Below are positions 3,271 through 27,881 of a stretch of 64,000 nucleotides of DNA, piece by piece. A program made the position numbers and the translations under genes. The number at the start of each line of letters is the position of its first letter. Positions within the stretch are counted from its first letter, which is position 1. The notes beneath the pieces are model-generated. The model did not search any database. It was not told the origin of the DNA and saw only the letters and a list, made by a program, of their open reading frames with translations. Source of the stretch: Echinicola arenosa (GTDB taxonomy: Bacteria; Bacteroidota; Bacteroidia; Cytophagales; Cyclobacteriaceae); assembly GCF_014841125.1 (NCBI RefSeq), contig NZ_JACYTQ010000007.1, positions 203,257 through 267,256 of the forward strand. Direction: 5' to 3'.

Positions 3271-4203
3271 TTACTTGAAGGCATCGGCTTTGTGATAGGC
3301 GTCAATCAGGGCTTGCTCACCTTCTTTACCTGGCATGGCATTTCCATGTTCCATGCCACATACTCCTTTGAATCCTTGGTTATCAATCCATTTGAATACA
3401 TTTTGATAGTTGATCTCACCTGTTCCAGGTTCTTTTCGGCCAGGGTTATCTCCAATTTGAATATAGTCGATTTCCTCCCAGCAAAGCTGCATGTTTTTGA
3501 TCAGGTCTCCTTCATTTCTTTGCATGTGATAAATGTCGTAAAGAATCTTGCAAGCAGGGCTGTCCACTGATTTGCAGATCAGGTACCCCTGATTGGAATG
3601 CCTCAAAAATAGGTCAGGGTTATCACTTAAAGGCTCCATGACCATGGTTAAATTGTGGGGTTCAAAAACATCGGATGCCAATTTATAGGCTTCGATTACG
3701 TTGGCTGTTTGTTGGTCCAAAGGTAATCTCCGCTCAAAATATCCTGGTACCACTGTCATCCATTTGGCATTGACTATTTTGGCTACTTCTACTGCTTTTT
3801 CACATTCCTTTATAAAAGCTTCTTTGAATTCCTGTTTGCCTGTAGTTAGTCCGGTTTTCCAATTGAAGCCTGGGTCAATCACAAAAACCCCCATGGTCAT
3901 GTTGTTCTTCTCCAGTGCTGCACCGATGCGTTTTTGATCTTCCAGAGAGCGATTCATTAGCCCATTGTCCTCAAAAGCAGTAAAACCTTGTTCGGCCATG
4001 AAATTGATTTGATCTATATAATCATCTCCGGCGTGGTTTTTAAACATGCCAAAGTGCGGAGCGTAGTTCATATTGAATTCCCTTCTTGCTTTGGCTTTTT
4101 CTGAAGTGCTTGCCAGTGATACTCCGCTGGTGAATGTAGCCAAAGCACTTCCTAGGGCAGCATTTTTTAAAAAATTCCTTCTAGGGTTGATGTGGTTTTT
4201 CAT
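3271..4203 (-). CDS. sugar phosphate isomerase/epimerase (xylose-isomerase-like TIM barrel), Tat-secreted
   Basis: Tat-type signal MKNHINPRRNFLKNAALGSALATF. The C-terminal half resembles hydroxypyruvate-isomerase / AP-endonuclease-2 TIM barrel proteins. Confidence 0.65.
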   Translation of the reverse strand: MKNHINPRRNFLKNAALGSALATFTSGVSLASTSEKAKARREFNMNYAPHFGMFKNHAGDDYIDQINFMAEQGFTAFEDNGLMNRSLEDQKRIGAALEKNNMTMGVFVIDPGFNWKTGLTTGKQEFKEAFIKECEKAVEVAKIVNAKWMTVVPGYFERRLPLDQQTANVIEAYKLASDVFEPHNLTMVMEPLSDNPDLFLRHSNQGYLICKSVDSPACKILYDIYHMQRNEGDLIKNMQLCWEEIDYIQIGDNPGRKEPGTGEINYQNVFKWIDNQGFKGVCGMEHGNAMPGKEGEQALIDAYHKADAFK

Positions 4204-16610: not shown

Positions 16611-17744
16611 ATGAGTCAATATGATGTGGCTGTCATTGGCAGCGGGCCTGCGGGAGCTTCGGCAGCTTATAGTTTAGCAAAAAAAGGAATATCTACTGTA
16701 TTGATTGAGAAGGAAACCTTGCCAAGGTACAAGACTTGTGGTGGTGGTTTTGTGTTTCGAGGTAGGAGAAACATGCCTTTTGATATTTCACCTGTGGTTG
16801 AAAGAGAATTTTATCAGATCAATCTTTATTTTGAAAATGAGGAGATGATGCTGACCACCAAGCGGGATGTGCCTGTAATTAGTATGGTGATGCGTGATGA
16901 TTTTGATCATTTTATCATCAAAAAGGCCAAGGAACTTGGTGTAGATGTGAAAGAAGGACATAAGCTTAATGGGATTACTTTTGGTGAAATGCCTACTTTA
17001 CACACCAGCCAAGGAGATATTCAGGCCAAGATGATCATAGCTGCAGATGGAGCACTTAGTCCAACAGCCAAGATGGCAGGATGGAAAGAGACCAGAAAGT
17101 TGATTCCGGCATTGGAGTATGAAGTGGAGGTAAGCCCTGAAGATTTTGAGCGTTTGTCGCAGGAAGTAAGGTTTGACGTGGATACCATTCCACATGGCTA
17201 TGCCTGGAGCTTCCCCAAAAAGAATCATTTGTCTTTAGGCGTCGCTTCAGCCAGAAAGGTGAGGATTGACCTCAAAGCCCATTATAGAAAGTATGTGGAG
17301 AAATTGGGCATCAAAGAAGTGATCAGTGAAAAAGCGCATGGATTCCAAATTCCAGTTGCTCCAAGGACGGATGGCTTTTACAGAAACAATGTGTTTTTGA
17401 TAGGAGATGCGGCGGGTTTTGCAGATCCAGTGACCGCAGAAGGAATTTCCAATGCCATTTTGAGTGGACAGCTAGTCGTGGAAGCTATTGCCGAAGCAGA
17501 GCTGAATCCTCAAAAGGCAGGAGAACTTTACCAAAGTAAATTAGAGGAAGACTTGCTCCCGGAAGTCATTACTGGCGTAAGTGTTTCGAAGTGGTTTTAT
17601 AGTCAGCGGATGATCAGGAACTTCTTGATGAAGAAGTACGGTGATTATTTTATCTCAGCCATGACGGATGTATTTATTGGTGACAGGAGTTATCCAAGGG
17701 ATTTGATGAAGAGTTTAAAGCGAAAAATCAAGGAATTGGTTTAA
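16611..17744 (+). CDS. geranylgeranyl reductase family FAD-dependent oxidoreductase
   Basis: N-terminal DVAVIGSGPAGASAAYSLAKKG FAD fold, ...TCGGG... motif, 377 aa. Confidence 0.8.
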   Translation: MSQYDVAVIGSGPAGASAAYSLAKKGISTVLIEKETLPRYKTCGGGFVFRGRRNMPFDISPVVEREFYQINLYFENEEMMLTTKRDVPVISMVMRDDFDHFIIKKAKELGVDVKEGHKLNGITFGEMPTLHTSQGDIQAKMIIAADGALSPTAKMAGWKETRKLIPALEYEVEVSPEDFERLSQEVRFDVDTIPHGYAWSFPKKNHLSLGVASARKVRIDLKAHYRKYVEKLGIKEVISEKAHGFQIPVAPRTDGFYRNNVFLIGDAAGFADPVTAEGISNAILSGQLVVEAIAEAELNPQKAGELYQSKLEEDLLPEVITGVSVSKWFYSQRMIRNFLMKKYGDYFISAMTDVFIGDRSYPRDLMKSLKRKIKELV

Positions 17745-17772
17745 AAGCTGTTTATAATTGATGAAATTTTAT

Positions 17773-17808
17773 AAATCCGAGACTTCTTTAAAGTTCTCGG
17801 ATTTTTGT
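17773..17808 (+). terminator. rho-independent terminator of the geranylgeranyl reductase gene
   Basis: AAATCCGAGA-(12 nt loop)-TCTCGGATTT followed by TTGTTT. Confidence 0.7.
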
Positions 17809-17813
17809 TTGCC

Positions 17814-19740
17814 GTGCATGCTAAACTCCAAGAGGGTTTAAGTCCCTTATGGGCGAGTTGACACGAACCATTAGTTGAGGGCAAGGGTGTTCGGGGCGAC
17901 CCGAAATCTGAAAGAAGCCTAAGACAAAACTTTGCCTTAATGAACAAGAACTGCATATAAGGCCTACTTGTGGGACGAGGTGGCAATAGACACCGAACTC
18001 CAAACGCCAAACGTAAGCAAGGTGGTAAATGCAGTAAGGTAAAGTGGATGAAGTTTAGCTTAACGCGGGAGGCCCCGTATCCGAGAGGAGATCGGGGAGT
18101 CAGCAGCGGCCATAGTAGTGAAGAAGGCCCTGTAATGGGGCTGGAGTGAAGGGCCAAATCTTTAAACAAGGAGCAGTTACCGGACAAATTGCAACAACCA
18201 CAATGAAAGCAGGAAAACACAACAGTGGTCAGATGAGTCTAGCAGGACTGGACGCATGGCCGTGTGGCCATGCGGTCAGAGGCGCAGACGTATTCTACAA
18301 GTCGGGCGGCAAGGTTAAGCGGGAGTGGTTGTCAAGATGTTCGGAAGAACGAGCCTTGACCAAGGACTTGATGGCAAAGGTAGTGTCGCCATCGAACCTT
18401 GTTGCCGCATTGCGGCAAGTAGTTTCCAACAAGGGCAGTTCGGGAGTTGACGGGATGACAACGAAGGAGTTGCAGGAATGGTTTGGGAGCCACTACCAAC
18501 AGCTCCAACACCAAATTATCACGGGCAACTACCAGGTACAGGCAGTACATGAAGTACAAATTCCCAAACCCAATGGCGGAGTACGGATCCTGGGGATTCC
18601 CACGGTAAAAGACAGGTTGGTACAACAGGCCATCAGTCAGGTGCTAAGCCAACACTACGATCCCACATTTTCGGAAAGAAGCTACGGCTTTAGGCCAGAC
18701 CGTGGGGCACATGATACCCTGCAGCAGGCCACCCAAGACGTATCGGAAGGCCGGGGCTGGATAGTGGATATAGACTTGGAGAAGTTTTTCGACAAAGTGA
18801 ACCACGACAGGCTTTTGTGGCTGTTAGGTACACGGGTCGGAGACAAACGCCTACTGAAGCTAATCGGCAAATTCTTACGGGCAGGACTGCTCAAAGAAGG
18901 ACTGGTTGGCCAACGGATAAAAGGCACGCCCCAAGGCAGTCCGTTATCACCCTTGCTGTCGAACATCGTACTGGATGAACTGGACAAGGAACTGGAAGTC
19001 CGTGGCCACCGCTTTGCACGCTACGCAGACGACTTAATTGTAATGGTCAAAAGCGAAGCCTCAGCCAATCGGGTATTATCGAGCCTGACAGTGTTCATAG
19101 AACAGCGCATGTTGCTGAAAGTGAACAGAGCAAAGAGCAAGATAAGCAGGCCACATGAACTGAACTTTCTAGGTCACAGGCTCCTAAGTGATGGACGGCT
19201 TGGACTTAGCAAAGTGAGTGAAAATCGCTTAAAAGCAAAGCTAAAGCAACTGAGCCAACGCAATCGGGGCATCAGCCTCGAACAGTTGGTCAGGGAACTC
19301 AACCCCGTTCTGCGGGGATGGCTCAACTACTTTAAAAAGGCCCAAATGCTCACAAAGCTAAAGGTATTAGAGGGCTGGCTCAACCGTAGGATCCGTTGTT
19401 TTCGGCTAAAGCAATGCAAACGGGCGTTATCATTGGCCAAGTTCCTACACGGTCTTGGTGTACCTTGGAACAGGAGCTGGACAACGGCAGGAAGCTCCAA
19501 GGGGTGGTACAGGCTGTCTATAACCCATGCCGCCCACGAAGGAATGAACCTAAAATGGTTCCGCTCCATAGGCTTGTACAGCCTAAAAGAGAACTACGTT
19601 AAATATTTAAAGAAACCGCCCAGTACGACAAACGTACGCTGGGTGGTGTGAGAGGACAGCAAAGTTAGGGTAGCTCCCTATCTTTGCTTCCTACTCGATT
19701 GTTTCAATGGAATCAAAATAAATCGATTTAGGAATTATAG
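17814..19740 (+). mobile_element. group II intron (compact, ORF in domain IV; bacterial class-C-like, inserted just 3' of a terminator). Boundaries approximate.
   Basis: GTGCATG lies ~10 nt after the terminator hairpin. About 330 nt of structured-looking RNA precedes an RT/maturase ORF. The 3' boundary is not resolved; domain V/VI were not confidently identified by eye. Confidence 0.6.
18146..19651 (+). CDS. group II intron reverse transcriptase/maturase (intron-encoded protein, no endonuclease domain)
   Basis: RT blocks including YADDLIVMV (RT5 YADD). The domain-X region (LRGWLNYF) and C-terminal end FRSIGLYSL are typical of En-less bacterial intron-encoded proteins. The true start is possibly downstream of the listed ATG. 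Confidence 0.9.
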   Translation: MKGQIFKQGAVTGQIATTTMKAGKHNSGQMSLAGLDAWPCGHAVRGADVFYKSGGKVKREWLSRCSEERALTKDLMAKVVSPSNLVAALRQVVSNKGSSGVDGMTTKELQEWFGSHYQQLQHQIITGNYQVQAVHEVQIPKPNGGVRILGIPTVKDRLVQQAISQVLSQHYDPTFSERSYGFRPDRGAHDTLQQATQDVSEGRGWIVDIDLEKFFDKVNHDRLLWLLGTRVGDKRLLKLIGKFLRAGLLKEGLVGQRIKGTPQGSPLSPLLSNIVLDELDKELEVRGHRFARYADDLIVMVKSEASANRVLSSLTVFIEQRMLLKVNRAKSKISRPHELNFLGHRLLSDGRLGLSKVSENRLKAKLKQLSQRNRGISLEQLVRELNPVLRGWLNYFKKAQMLTKLKVLEGWLNRRIRCFRLKQCKRALSLAKFLHGLGVPWNRSWTTAGSSKGWYRLSITHAAHEGMNLKWFRSIGLYSLKENYVKYLKKPPSTTNVRWVV

Positions 19741-19841
19741 ACCATTGGTCAAATGATGGAATAAGAATAATAATTTCACTTTTCATTTTAGCTCAAATCA
19801 ATTAACTTCCAACCTTGTATTTATTAGAAACCCAATTTACA

Positions 19842-20597
19842 ATGAAATTAAACCTATTAATCCCGATTGTTGCGGGAAGTCTATTGAGCATTCCAGCTCT
19901 GGCTCAGCACAAGCAAATTCAATTACCTCCAGAAGCAACAGAAGTATGGGAACCAGAACCTAGGAAAGTTACTCCTGGGGAAGAAAATCATCTACCGCCT
20001 TCTGATGCTATTGTTCTTTTTGATGGCAGTGATTTGAGTGCATGGAAAAGTTATAAAACCGGAGGTGATGCTGAATGGAGTGTGCATGATGGTATCTTTA
20101 CAGTGGCGGCTGGCAAAGGTGATATTGCCACTAAAGAGTCTTTTGGGGATGTGCAGGTACATATCGAATGGAAAGCACCAGATGTGGTGAAAGGAGACGG
20201 GCAAGGAAGAGGAAATAGTGGGCTATTCTTTATGGATCGCTATGAAGTACAGATTTTAGATTCCTATGATAATCGCACTTATTCTAATGGTCAAGCAGCT
20301 TCTTTATACAAAGAAGGTATACCTTTAGTAAATGCTACGCGACCTCACACAGAATGGAATACTTATGATGTGTTCTTTACAGCACCTAGGTTCAATGAGG
20401 ATGGCATGTTGATCAGACCTGCTTATGTAACGGTCATCCATAATGGTATTTTGGTACAAAATCATTATGAAGTAAAAGGCTCAACTGCGTATATCGGGGT
20501 TCACCAATATGAACCCCATGAAGCGGAGTTGCCAATCAAGTTACAGGACCATGGCAATCCGGTGAATTTTAGAAATATCTGGGTCAGGAAACTTTGA
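19842..20597 (+). CDS. DUF1080 (3-keto-disaccharide hydrolase-like, concanavalin-like fold) secreted protein
   Basis: Signal peptide MKLNLLIPIVAGSLLSIPALA; C-terminal ...DHGNPVNFRNIWVRKL is typical of the family. Confidence 0.65.
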   Translation: MKLNLLIPIVAGSLLSIPALAQHKQIQLPPEATEVWEPEPRKVTPGEENHLPPSDAIVLFDGSDLSAWKSYKTGGDAEWSVHDGIFTVAAGKGDIATKESFGDVQVHIEWKAPDVVKGDGQGRGNSGLFFMDRYEVQILDSYDNRTYSNGQAASLYKEGIPLVNATRPHTEWNTYDVFFTAPRFNEDGMLIRPAYVTVIHNGILVQNHYEVKGSTAYIGVHQYEPHEAELPIKLQDHGNPVNFRNIWVRKL

Positions 20598-25457: not shown

Positions 25458-27185
25458 TCAAAATAGGAAATAACGTTGTGCCAGAGGGAGTACTTCTAAA
25501 GGTTCACAAGTAATTACCTTACCCTCAACGGAAACTTCATAGTTTTCTGGATTGACTTCTATAACCGGGGTCTTGTCGTTATGGATCAGGTCTTTTTTTC
25601 CAATGTTTCTACAACCCTCTACGGGCACAACCTCTTTTTTTAACCCATATTTTTCTTTGATGTTGTTTTCCAATCCTGCTTTAGAGATGAAAGTGACAGA
25701 GGTTTTTTCAAGGGCGCTGCCATGGGCTCCAAACATATTCCGCATGATTACAGGTTGAGGGGTAGGGATGGAGGCGTTGGGGTCTCCCATTTTGCTGGCG
25801 GTGATCATTCCACCCTTAATTACCATTTCTGGTTTTGCCCCAAAGAAAGCAGGCTTCCACAGTACCAGGTCAGCTATCTTTCCCGATTCTATGGAACCGA
25901 CATGTTTAGCGATTCCATGAGAAATAGCGGGGTTGATGGTGTATTTGGCAATGTATCTTTTGACCCTGAAGTTGTCCGCTTGAAGCTCTCGGTCTTCAGG
26001 AAGGAAACCTTGTTGAATTTTGTTTTTATGTGCAGTTTGCCAGGTTCTGGTAATGACTTCACCCACTCTGCCCATGGCCTGAGAATCAGAACTCATCATA
26101 CTGAATACGCCCATATCATGGAGGATGTCCTCCGCTGCGATGGTCTCCTTTCGAATTCTTGAGTCTGCAAAGGCAACATCTTCCGGGATAGATTTGCTCA
26201 AATGATGACAGACCATCAACATGTCTAAATGCTCATCAATGGTGTTTTTGGTGTACGGACGGGTAGGGTTGGTCGAGCTGGGTAATACATTGGGAAATGA
26301 AGATATTTTAATGATGTCCGGAGCATGCCCCCCACCGGCCCCTTCAGTATGGAAGGTATGGATGGTTCTTCCTTTAATGGCATTTACAGTATCCTCAAGA
26401 AAACCAGCTTCATTAAGGGTGTCTGTATGGATAGCAATTTGCACATCGAATTCATCTGCTACTTTCAGTGAAGCATCTATCACAGCAGGCGTCGCGCCCC
26501 AATCTTCATGGATTTTAAGTCCGAGAGCTCCGGCTTCTACCTGCTCTTTGAGTGGGGCTAGGGTACTGCAATTTCCTTTTCCAAAAAATCCCAAATTCAT
26601 AGGGTAATGGTCGGCTGCTTCCAGCATTTTTTGGATATTCCATGCTCCAGGTGTGACGGTGGTGGCATTGGTGCCATCGGCAGGGCCAGTACCTCCGCCG
26701 ATCATGGTAGTGATGCCGCTAAACAGTGCATGTTCTATTTGTTGGGGACAAATAAAATGGATATGAGCATCTATTCCTCCTGGAGTCAGGATATGTCCTG
26801 CTCCGGAGTGAACCTCGGTTGAAGCTCCTATGATCAAGTCAGAATGCACTCCGGACATGGTGTCTGGGTTACCAGCTTTTCCTACACCGACTATTTTACC
26901 ATCCTTGATCCCTACATCTCCTTTTACTATTCCCCAATGGTCAATGATGATGACATTAAGAATGACAAAATCCAATACGCCTTCATTTCGAATATTGGTA
27001 GAGGCTTGAGACATTCCGTCACGTACGGTTTTTCCTCCTCCAAACATACTTTCTTCACCATAATGTTCGCTGTTGAAGTCTTTTTCGATTTCAATAAATA
27101 ATTCTGTATCCCCTAGTCTTATTTTGTCACCTGCCGTTGGGCCATAGATATTGGCATATTTAATCCTCTTGACTTTAAAGCTCAT
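25458..27185 (-). CDS. ureC: urease alpha subunit
   Basis: 575 aa; [32 protein letters not shown]...; active-site region MVCHHL... Confidence 0.95.
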
Positions 27186-27556
27186 ACATTTTCAGTTTTA
27201 AAATTTTTTGATTTGATTTTTTGCATGGCTTTGTCAAGGCTATTGGAAGATTGGGTGTCTCCTTGGGTAAGGTTATTGGCACCATAGGCCTTTTGAGCAC
27301 CGCTAAGTGGGATTAAGCTTACTTCAGTGCTTTCACCTGGCTCAAACCGTCTTGCTGTTCCTGCCAGGATATCCATGCGTTTTCCAAATGCTTTTGAACG
27401 ATCAAATGAAATGGCTTTGTTGACTTCAAAGAAATGAAAGTGCGAGCCAACCTGGATGGGGCGATCACCAGTGTTGGTGACTTCTATTGAAATGCTTGTA
27501 TGCTGGGCATTACAGACTATAGGTTCATCTTTTAAGATATATTCTCCTGGTATCAT
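27182..27556 (-). CDS. ureB: urease beta subunit
   Basis: 124 aa [17 protein letters not shown]... Confidence 0.9.
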
Positions 27557-27578: not shown

Positions 27579-27881
27579 TTAGCGGATAGGATTGTGTACG
27601 GTCACCAGTTTAGTTCCATCTGGGAAGGTAGCTTCAATTTGTACATCATGGATCATTTCTGCTACCCCTTCCATTACATCTTCCTTCGTGAGAAAGGTGG
27701 CTCCAATCTGCATGAGTTCTGCAACAGACTTTCCATCTCGAGCCATTTCGTGCAATCGTGCACTTATGAGCGCAATGGACTCAGGATAGTTTAATTTTAC
27801 ACCTCTGGCTTTTCTTTTTTCAGCCAATTCACCGGCAAGGAAGAGCATGAGTTTTTCAGTTTCTCTGGGGGTGAGCTTCAT
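27579..27881 (-). CDS. ureA: urease gamma subunit
   Basis: 100 aa [34 protein letters not shown]... Confidence 0.9.

Follow-up and report, generated by a model that had tools for sequence, protein, structure and literature searches.

Genes and features at the locus

The window analyzed here is a 64,000-nt stretch of the genome of Echinicola sp. CAU 1574. On its + strand, a gene for a geranylgeranyl reductase family FAD oxidoreductase (16611-17744; Pfam FAD_binding_3 and DAO, weak GGR_cat), whose protein is 100% identical to Echinicola sp. CAU 1574 protein P0121, is followed by an intrinsic terminator, a reverse transcriptase (RT) gene and, outside the element described below, a gene of the 3-keto-disaccharide hydrolase family (19842-20597, + strand; Pfam PF06439, 1.8e-44). 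The terminator (17773-17806, + strand) consists of the hairpin AAAUCCGAGACUU/AAG-UUCUCGGAUUU (17773-17804) and a U-run that extends to 17806. It had already been recognized in the initial annotation and has a folding energy of −13.8 kcal/mol (z = −4.6), which 1 of 200 shuffled sequences matched; a simple terminator scan missed it because of the bulge in its stem. No integron context was found among the neighboring genes.

Directly behind the U-run, positions 17807-19699 (+ strand) very probably form a full-length retroelement of 1893 nt, a group II intron of class C (IIC) that runs from GUUUG at its 5′ end to CUACUCGAU at its 3′ end. Judged by sequence, it belongs to a known kind, the ordinary bacterial IIC intron, a self-splicing mobile RNA type with its own reverse transcriptase. 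Both ends were placed by aligning the region with over 40 related introns among the matches listed (the related loci, given L numbers, are the best 80 from a scan of a genome collection and do not include the CAU 1574 genome). These include introns from multi-copy genomes, where the identity between copies starts and stops exactly at the positions matching 17807 and 19699. An empty site in Echinicola sp. 20G agrees with both ends, with a 1-nt ambiguity. The 3′ boundary, initially left open, is now set at 19699.

The GC content of the intron is about 0.50 versus 0.30-0.39 in the flanking spacers. The ribozyme parts are all present: the 5′ end, an EBS1-bearing domain I, J2/3 followed by domain III, domain V, and a domain VI that contains a bulged A. 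RNA outside the ORF amounts to 396 + 48 nt; the 5′ part ends at the ATG of 18203 and is longer than the approximately 330 nt first estimated. Rfam searches of both strands of the window gave one D1D4-3 match and the domain V/VI model described below also gave one, in line with the earlier statement that the window holds no second copy. The 90% cluster of the intron-encoded protein (IEP) has one member on one contig, and a look-up of the exact IEP in a contig collection gave no entry. Searches of a plasmid collection returned distant matches (among those listed, identity is 66% at most and coverage of the query 47% at most, the best being a Microscilla plasmid), and a phage collection returned only distant similarity, with one short 75% stretch in one phage record. 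None of these matches points to a vector.

5′ end, domains I to IV and exon recognition

The intron begins with GUUUG (17807-17811, + strand), a lineage variant of GUGYG that is also found in L007, L087, L089, L091 and L092. The GTGCATG at 17814 that had been read as an intron start of the form GUGCA is present, but the true start is the GUUUG 7 nt upstream at 17807: in all relatives it is matched by intron positions 8-12 (AUGCA/GGGCA), and identity between the copies of multi-copy genomes begins 7 nt before it. Intron position 3 forms a Watson-Crick pair with the nucleotide at window position 18063 (+ strand) in 43/43 introns (G-C, 33; U-A, 5; A-U, 5), and among all alignment columns that of 18063 has the highest mutual information with position 3 (1.02 bits). 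A18063 is presumably part of epsilon-epsilon′, a name that we infer. The departure of U3 from GUGYG is offset by the covarying A18063 and is kept across the lineage.

Domain I (17812-18068, + strand) is closed by a basal stem placed from the alignment (CCGUG, 17812-17816; CGCGG, 18064-18068). It contains a full-length match to the Rfam model group-II-D1D4-3 (RF02001; 17890-18060) at 128.7 bits (gathering score, 32), which bears out the check with Rfam group-II-D1D4 models that the initial annotation had proposed. The D1D4-1 model (RF01998) stays below its gathering score (28.9 bits against 35) and aligns with a 10-nt gap. This sub-threshold match and the alignment are the evidence for a segment with a reduced domain II, J2/3, domain III and the start of domain IV (18070-18154, + strand). 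Domain II is a short GAGA-capped hairpin (approximately 18071-18098), a form that the alignment shows to be common to the whole sub-lineage of L001, L007, L016 and L087-L092; J2/3 and domain III follow with GUCAGCAG (18099-18106) and CCAUAGUA.

We located EBS1 (AAUA, 17985-17988, + strand) in the 8-nt terminal loop GCAAUAGA of a GGUG/CACC stem by its covariation with 5′ exon ends, examples being CAAA/UUUG in L067 and UGAA/UUCA in L069. Over 49 intron/site combinations, 156/196 EBS1/IBS1 positions pair, compared with 105.8 ± 5.2 after shuffling, and 0/2000 shuffles reach 156. In the Echinicola intron, IBS1 (UUUU, 17803-17806, + strand), with which the 5′ exon ends, pairs with EBS1 at −1, −2 and −4 and leaves a U·U mismatch at −3, which is the usual state among AAUA-type relatives. 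The first 3′ exon nucleotide (U, 19700, + strand) is the presumed IBS3. Since it is a T at most related sites, covariation is little informative for EBS3/IBS3.

Domains V and VI

Domain V (19615-19647, + strand) has a CGC catalytic triad (19617-19619), a G19618·U19644 wobble, a 2-nt AC bulge (A19636-C19637) and an ACAAA loop. Triad, wobble and bulge have likewise been described for the Oceanobacillus iheyensis intron (triad C358-G359-C360, G·U wobble, A376-C377 bulge; PMC3669008). The initial annotation had noted a bulged hairpin in the 3′ end of the ORF without being able to place domain V; the hairpin is there, at 19620-19644, and is itself domain V. A reading of the bulge as CG was rejected in favor of AC with a U·G pair, on which RNAalifold, the minimum free energy (MFE) fold and the published O. 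iheyensis structure agree. The AGCAAAG...CTTTGCT hairpin reported past the stop codon is likewise present and corresponds to domain VI (19649-19697, + strand), in which A19693, 7 nt before the 3′ splice site, is bulged as the branch-point adenosine. The intron ends in GAU; an alternative 3′ end at 19694 (CCUAC) was discarded, because the conserved CUCGAU runs on to 19699 and copies diverge only beyond it.

As single sequences, domain V folds with an MFE of −17.2 kcal/mol (z = −3.9) and domain VI with −26.3 kcal/mol (z = −5.8). RNAalifold on 43 introns returned 24 pairs; compensatory changes support 10 of these, 4 domain V pairs among them. In 12/43 introns, G-C replaces A-U in the basal helix of domain VI (UGAGAGG/CCU[A]CUCG), a compensatory change; the distal helix covaries as well. 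We also built a covariance model of domains V/VI (R1) from 34 other IIC introns, with this intron and its close relatives left out. R1 has a single match in the window (19614-19699, 68.9 bits, E = 1.7e-14). The Rfam model Intron_gpII (RF00029) gave no match on 17600-20000, even at E ≤ 10, and reaches its gathering score in only 2/16 related loci; together with the R1 match, this marks the null result as low sensitivity for IIC introns and not as absence of the domains. The initial annotation had named a missing domain V/VI match as grounds for rejecting the intron. Taken literally, such a match is missing with RF00029, whereas R1 finds both domains.

The intron-encoded protein

The IEP gene (18203-19651, + strand) lies inside domain IV and encodes 482 aa with an RT domain, an X/maturase domain and a short C-terminal region (RVT_1, GIIM, TIGR04416). 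The most likely start is the ATG at 18203, and the same ATG start is found in L087, L089 and L091. The initial description of a 501-aa RT/maturase lacking an endonuclease (En) domain was accurate as to domains (RVT_1 and GIIM, YADD, no other domain), while the length is probably 482 aa. On the ORF of the 501-aa reading (18146-19651), Pfam detects RVT_1 (2.8e-39) and GIIM (domain X, 1.3e-17) and nothing further; the YADD block is intact (RYADDLIV), and no En domain was found in the IEP by Pfam search. At NCBI, Echinicola sp. CAU 1574 has a 482-aa protein that is 100% identical to the IEP, whose nearest known relative shares 82% identity.

Among proteins in the PDB, the IEP aligns end to end with the GsI-IIC RT (6ar1; 357 bits, 1.2e-105). 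The alignment with this 428-aa En-less RT spans residues 75-486 of the 501-aa reading, with no additional C-terminal domain. Other top relatives are the Eubacterium rectale IIC RT (333 bits) and the Roseburia intestinalis/E. rectale IIC RT domains (283 bits), with E values of 3e-98 (7uim) and 5e-83 (5hhj) for IIC entries. Non-IIC matches are weaker, at 131 bits for the IIA protein LtrA (5e-37) and 122 bits for a IIB maturase. A comparison with retron RTs, raised in the initial annotation as a check, leaves the retron models far below their cutoffs (St85, 89/235; Ec67, 59/450), as it does Drt3a (55/200) and Drt2 (53/390), and TIGR04416 passes (375.5 bits against a cutoff of 300).

The N-terminal extension of the IEP, approximately 55 aa long, carries a conserved EWLSxCxEERALT motif. 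At the other end, the last 12 codons and the stop (UGA) overlap domain V and reach the base of domain VI; the ORF is likewise read through domain V in 13/50 relatives. Codon differences from relatives in the core number 66/40/155 at positions 1/2/3, a strong third-position bias that points to purifying selection on the IEP.

Target site and empty site

The initial annotation placed the insertion about 10 nt downstream of the terminator. It does directly follow the terminator, though at 0 nt past the U-run and 2 nt past the last paired base. The intron is inserted in the sense orientation, with the upstream gene on the same strand. As 5′ exon, the terminator supplies the DNA/RNA stem-loop by which IIC introns identify their targets. 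This placement recurs among related introns: 41/45 distinct insertion sites, taken from related introns among the matches listed, follow a hairpin of −10 kcal/mol or below that ends at most 10 nt from the insertion point, with a mean of −18.4 kcal/mol versus −6.6 for controls (p = 1e-23).

An uninterrupted homologous terminator in a relative, whose absence was to have counted against the intron, is found in the sister strain Echinicola sp. 20G (AP024154.1, L081). There the intergenic region is intron-free and colinear with our flanks joined at 17806|19700, with 258 identical of 268 aligned positions (about 96%) and no indel. The terminator hairpin is also found at this intron-less locus, as is the same hydrolase neighbor, 204 nt past the reductase gene; the spacer between the two genes measures 204 nt in 20G and 2097 nt (204 + 1893) in CAU 1574. 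The filled junction reads TTTTT|GTTTG and the empty site TTTTTTGTTTT (longer 20G empty site, AAATCCGAGACTTCTTTAAAGCTCTCGGATTTTTTGTTTTAATG), and the exon sequences flanking 17806|19700 are GGAUUUUU|UGUUUCAA. From these sequences, the element appears to have inserted precisely between the terminator U-run and the remaining spacer, and the approximately 96% identity of the flanks to the empty site indicates an evolutionarily recent insertion.

Alternative interpretations

The class C assignment of the initial annotation is borne out by an IEP nearest to IIC RTs, the IIC domain I signature, IIC domains V/VI and the terminator-site rule in relatives. A group II intron of another class (for example IIB-like D/E/F or CL) that adjoins the terminator by chance might have been suspected from the 5′ motif GUGCA, which looked non-canonical, and from the blindness of RF00029 to domains V/VI here. 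We consider it highly improbable: the best structural relatives of the IEP are IIC RTs without exception, with a lead of more than 150 bits, domains V/VI are nearly identical to those of the GsI-IIC-type locus L075, the IIC intron of O. iheyensis has the same CGC triad, and the relatives obey the terminator-targeting rule. A stand-alone RT system (a retron, DGR, Drt defense RT or group II intron-like RT) would account for the weak matches to retron and Drt models, yet all those scores lie far below the respective cutoffs, TIGR04416 passes its own, the RT sits inside a full ribozyme with domains I-VI, and the insertion is a precise 1893 nt bounded by intron ends. This reading is effectively refuted.

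A complete IIC intron may also be structurally intact and now immobile, the relic of a single old insertion with no current splicing or retromobility. It is a single copy as far as seen (one member on one contig in the 90% cluster), its closest IEP relative is only 82% identical, domain II is reduced with a sub-threshold D1D4-1 score, EBS1 and IBS1 have a mismatch, and a place behind a terminator means low transcription. We nevertheless think such a relic unlikely, because all 482 codons are open with YADD intact, the third-position bias of the core codon differences (66/40/155) reflects purifying selection, every catalytic RNA motif is present, the odd features (GUUUG, short domain II) are compensated and common to the whole sub-lineage, and flanks about 96% identical to the empty site make the insertion recent.

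Proposed life cycle

For a complete IIC intron of this kind, the life cycle may be modeled on that of characterized IIC introns, which have no En domain, integrate behind intrinsic terminators and take their primers from the replication fork (PMC4424553). In these introns a stem-loop serves 5′ exon recognition, and branching needs the IEP (PMC7161350). By analogy, the Echinicola intron would be transcribed by read-through of the terminator, and the IEP would bind the intron RNA and promote lariat-forming splicing. The resulting RNP would target a terminator-type DNA stem-loop together with the short IBS1 (UUUU, against EBS1 AAUA) and IBS3, in DNA that is probably single-stranded during replication. 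The RNA would reverse-splice just past the U-run and then be copied into cDNA, for which the nascent replication strand may serve as primer, since the IEP cannot cut the opposite strand. A position behind the terminator and outside coding sequence would keep both host harm and intron expression low.

The finding matters little beyond annotation, where the genome record names the protein only ("group II intron reverse transcriptase/maturase") and our analysis adds the exact ends, the class, the target site and the empty site. It does bear on how such introns are sought. Intron_gpII misses domains V/VI of most IIC relatives, so that the lack of a domain V match is unfit for rejecting IIC introns, and as the IEP ORF often overlaps domain V in IIC relatives, domain V should be sought inside the ORF end. 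With its filled site in CAU 1574 and its empty site in 20G, the locus is a clean natural case of a Bacteroidota intron targeting a terminator. We know of no Bacteroidota IIC intron that has been studied biochemically.

Comparison with known introns

The Echinicola intron shares with the terminator-targeting IIC introns B.h.I1 (Bacillus halodurans), O.i.I1 (Oceanobacillus iheyensis), GsI-IIC (Geobacillus stearothermophilus) and Ta.it.I1 a small ribozyme with approximately 440 nt outside the ORF, an En-less RT/maturase that aligns end to end with the GsI-IIC RT, the CGC triad and AC bulge of domain V, a 4-nt EBS1/IBS1, and sense insertion directly past a hairpin and U-run. At the Geobacillus GsI-IIC-type locus L075, domains V/VI (AACCGCC...GGUGGUGUGAGAGG...CCUACUCGAU) are nearly identical to ours, and the domain VI end CCUACUCGAU is identical. 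The Echinicola intron differs from these four in its 5′ end, GUUUG instead of GUGYG with a compensating U3-A18063, in a domain II cut to one small hairpin, in the IEP N-terminal extension of approximately 55 aa, and in an ORF whose UGA stop lies past domain V, in the base of domain VI. IEP identity to Firmicutes IIC introns is only about 45%.

The same sub-lineage features are found in IIC introns from Bacteroidota and metagenomes (L007 from a Saprospiraceae MAG, L087-L092, L001, L016 and L074), none of which, to our knowledge, has been named or experimentally characterized. L007, whose intron also measures 1893 nt, and L087-L092 share GUUUG, while L001 and L016 have GUGUG. Also shared are a short domain II, an extended IEP, an AAUA/AAUG EBS1 and insertion after U-runs; these introns differ from ours in their host sites and in IEP identity (58-82%). 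The U-rich 5′ end of the sub-lineage could regenerate the terminator U-tract after insertion. That all of this adds up to a distinct, mainly Bacteroidota IIC sub-lineage (GUUUG with a compensating U3-A tertiary pair, minimal domain II, IEP extension of approximately 55 aa, ORF through domain V) with U-tract regeneration is a speculative proposal that we rate as rather improbable in its entirety. Were it true, the host terminator would keep working and the element would be nearly silent, and an RNA with ribosomes crossing its domain V could not be translated and fold as a ribozyme at the same time.

The IIC-attC introns (for example S.ma.I2) belong to the same class and also recognize a DNA stem-loop (PMC4424553). 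Their targets are the attC sites of integrons, whereas the Echinicola target is a terminator and U-run after a housekeeping-type gene.

A precise insertion behind a terminator

The intergenic region between a geranylgeranyl-reductase-family gene (16611-17744, + strand) and a 3-keto-disaccharide hydrolase gene (about 19842-20597, +) spans 2097 nt. It starts with a terminator hairpin, AAAUCCGAGACUU…AAG-UUCUCGGAUUU (17773-17804, +), followed by a U-run up to 17806; hairpin and U-run together (17773-17806) fold at −13.8 kcal/mol (z = −4.6), a stability matched by 1 of 200 shuffled sequences. The features listed in the initial annotation were all recovered at their coordinates: GTGCATG at 17814, a reverse transcriptase (RT) ORF with YADD and domain X, a bulged hairpin inside the end of the ORF and an AGCAAAG…CUUUGCU hairpin past its stop codon.

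We delimited the intron using multi-copy genomes (for example, six Vibrio sp. nBUS_14 loci, four Gemmataceae MAG loci and the locus pair L004/L005), in which the copies diverge right before a 5′ GUGCG and right past a 3′ …CGAU. In the alignment to relatives, the homologous 5′ end of the window intron is GUUUGCCGUGCAUGC at 17807. The GUGCA at 17814, initially taken as the intron start, corresponds to positions 8-12 in every relative and was rejected. The 3′ boundary, previously left open, falls at 19699, where copies diverge after …CGAU. Based on these divergence points and the homologous 5′ end, the whole intron occupies 17807-19699 (+, 1893 nt). Its closest genomic relative among the matches listed, from a Saprospiraceae MAG (L007), is also 1893 nt long, and repeat-collapsed metagenome contigs with close homologues are roughly 1.9 kb, consistent with this length.

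Echinicola sp. 20G (AP024154.1, locus L081) has the same gene order, a 98% identical reductase, an uninterrupted terminator and a spacer of only 204 nt. This spacer aligns without indels to 17745-17806 joined with 19700-19841 (258 identical of 268 aligned positions), and at its empty-site junction TCTCGGATTTTT is followed by TGTTT. Because 2097 − 1893 = 204, the element is, as judged from this comparison, a precise insertion with a placement ambiguity of one T only. The U-tract after insertion reads TTTTT followed by GTTTG (17802-17811), versus TTTTTTGTTTT in the empty site (L081, 5195-5206). As the U-rich 5′ end of the intron largely restores the U-tract, the host terminator may still work.

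Ribozyme domains

The Rfam model group-II-D1D4-3 matched in full at 17890-18060 (128.7 bits, gathering score 32), and D1D4-1 gave a sub-threshold match at 18073-18154 (28.9 bits versus 35). With 43 distinct 5′ halves aligned, domain II proves much shorter in the sub-lineage of the window intron, which accounts for the weak D1D4-1 score. Rfam also reported 5_ureB_sRNA at 26730-27024 (+, 52.4 bits, gathering score 40), in antisense orientation over the 5′ portion of the gene for the urease alpha subunit (25458-27185, −), which adjoins urease beta (27182-27556) and gamma (27579-27881); the most likely source of this match is conservation of the coding sequence, not a demonstrated antisense sRNA.

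The GUUUG 5′ end is shared with L007 and with metagenome relatives of 74-82% identity in the intron-encoded protein (IEP), each preceded by a U-run. In the alignment of 5′ halves, the column that shares the most mutual information with intron position 3 (1.02 bits) is that of 18063, which immediately precedes the 3′ strand of the basal stem of domain I; the two form Watson-Crick pairs in 43/43 sequences (G-C, 33; U-A, 5; A-U, 5). This covariation indicates that the departure from GUGYG is compensated rather than decay, and we infer that the pair is part of ε-ε′.

The generic domain V/VI model RF00029 (Intron_gpII) found no match in 17600-20000 even at E ≤ 10, an outcome that, according to the initial annotation, would count against an intron, whereas a class-specific model does match at 19614-19699. 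Across 16 loci encoding relatives of the IEP, D1D4-3 was present in 13 and RF00029 passed in only 2, both narrowly (44.1 and 41.6 bits versus 40), with domain V overlapping the end of the IEP match in one of them. RF00029 is thus a practical blind spot when class C (IIC) introns are annotated automatically.

Aligning the sequence on either side of the ORF ends in about 60 related loci, among the genome-collection loci listed, gave a 3′ module with hardly any variation, AACCGCC-(hairpin)-GGUGGUGUGAGAGG-(hairpin)-CCUACUCGAU, located at 19614-19699 in the window intron and also present in the Geobacillus GsI-IIC-type locus L075. RNAalifold (43 distinct sequences) predicted 24 pairs and found compensatory double changes in 10. 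The class-specific covariance model, trained on 34 other introns with the window intron and its close relatives excluded, gave exactly one match in the 64-kb window (+, 68.9 bits, E = 1.7e-14). On the strength of the conserved module and this match, the in-ORF hairpin is domain V, which the initial annotation had not placed, and the hairpin past the stop makes up the distal portion of domain VI. Domain V (19615-19647, +) has a CGC triad (19617-19619), a G19618·U19644 wobble, a 2-nt bulge (A19636-C19637) and an ACAAA loop. Its triad, G·U wobble and AC bulge match the active site of the O. iheyensis IIC intron (C358-G359-C360, G359·U, A376-C377; PMC3669008). In domain VI (19649-19697, +), A19693 is bulged and lies 7 nt from the 3′ end.

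The IEP reading frame crosses domain V and ends at a UGA within the conserved GUGAGAGG at the base of domain VI (19614-19651). Among 50 relatives the stop codon immediately precedes domain V in 32, overlaps or falls inside it in 5 and lies beyond it in 13. Domain V folding and translation would exclude each other on one RNA molecule.

Intron-encoded protein

The ORF contains RVT_1 (2.8e-39) and group II maturase GIIM (1.3e-17) domains and none besides. Its score with the NCBIfam model TIGR04416 (group II intron RT/maturase) is 375.5 bits, above the cutoff of 300, while the retron and Drt models score far under their own cutoffs. The top solved-structure matches are class C proteins throughout: the GsI-IIC RT (6ar1; 357 bits, E = 1.2e-105, aligned end to end), the E. 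rectale IIC RT (7uim; 333 bits) and the IIC RT domains 5hhj/5hhl (283 bits), versus 131 bits for the IIA protein LtrA and 122 bits for a IIB maturase. Echinicola sp. CAU 1574 encodes a 100% identical protein of 482 aa, annotated "group II intron reverse transcriptase/maturase"; among known relatives, the nearest is 82% identical in the IEP. Because of this 482-aa protein, and with the same Met in close relatives, we move the start from GTG 18146 (a 501-aa reading) to ATG 18203.

Codon differences from relatives in the core show a strong third-position bias (66/40/155), indicating past purifying selection on the protein. Residues 1-56 (18203-18370) form an N-terminal extension of ~55 aa, absent from the GsI-IIC RT, with an EWLSxCxEERALT motif conserved in related loci L001, L007, L014, L016 and L087-L092. 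As codon-position bias is far weaker there (10/12/14), this first part may experience little constraint at the protein level or have a double role as domain IV RNA.

Related introns and proposed life cycle

The IIC-type En-less IEP, domains V/VI and terminator-adjacent insertion bear out the initial class C reading: the element is a class C group II intron of an ordinary, well-understood kind, from a Bacteroidota sub-lineage with small peculiarities. One copy is visible in the 64-kb window, and among the matches listed from plasmid and phage collections, all are distant. Elsewhere, a Pyrinomonadaceae MAG (CAWGWE010000002.1; L079, 5275-9120) carries a tandem array of three IIC copies head to tail; at two junctions the 3′ end …CCCGAU directly abuts GUGCGCCCGGCA of the following copy. 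The NCBI/ENA metagenome relative closest to the window intron (78% IEP identity) follows a GC-rich hairpin and neighbours a Y1_Tnp (IS200-type) transposase gene encoded on the opposite strand (L087, 716-961; L088, 749-994).

In the window, a full ribozyme and an intact RT/maturase without En are inserted in sense orientation precisely behind a terminator U-run, and a sister strain lacks the insertion. By analogy with characterised IIC introns, terminator read-through would lead to intron transcription and the IEP would help lariat splicing; the RNP would then recognise a DNA stem-loop with IBS1 and IBS3 and reverse splice into DNA, where the nascent replication strand would prime cDNA synthesis. 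Positive + strand GC skew in 13 of 16 4-kb bins weakly suggests that the lagging strand is templated by the intron sense strand, as would be expected of introns lacking En. The GC content of the intron (about 0.50; spacers, 0.30-0.39; window, about 0.40) fits a foreign origin.

Target recognition

EBS1 (AAUA, 17985-17988, +) lies in an 8-nt terminal loop, GCAAUAGA (17983-17990). In 49 distinct intron/site combinations the four corresponding loop positions pair with exon positions −1 to −4 in 96%, 96%, 45% and 82%, respectively (156/196 pairs in total, versus 105.8 ± 5.2 with introns and sites shuffled; 0/2000 shuffles reach 156), and clear switches include CAAA/UUUG and UGAA/UUCA. The window intron pairs at −1, −2 and −4, with a U·U at −3 that is usual for AAUA-type relatives in U-runs.

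One Bacteroidetes MAG has a single kind of intron at three sites (L019, L020, L021; ~3490-3534), each time after a repeated GTCCCGTAGGGAC hairpin and then AAAATATAGG, with no T-run; this target looks like a dispersed palindromic repeat, not a terminator.

In 41 of 45 distinct upstream flanks, a hairpin of at least −10 kcal/mol strength has its end no more than 10 nt from the insertion point (mean −18.4 kcal/mol, versus −6.6 for 450 45-mers taken as controls from the same loci; Mann-Whitney p = 1e-23), and 29/45 have at least 5 T within the last 8 nt. Class C introns are documented to insert after intrinsic terminators, to lack En and to use replication-fork priming (PMC4424553), with stem-loop-assisted 5′ exon recognition and IEP-dependent branching (PMC7161350). 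The hairpin and U-run targeting of the window intron and its relatives agrees with these documented systems.
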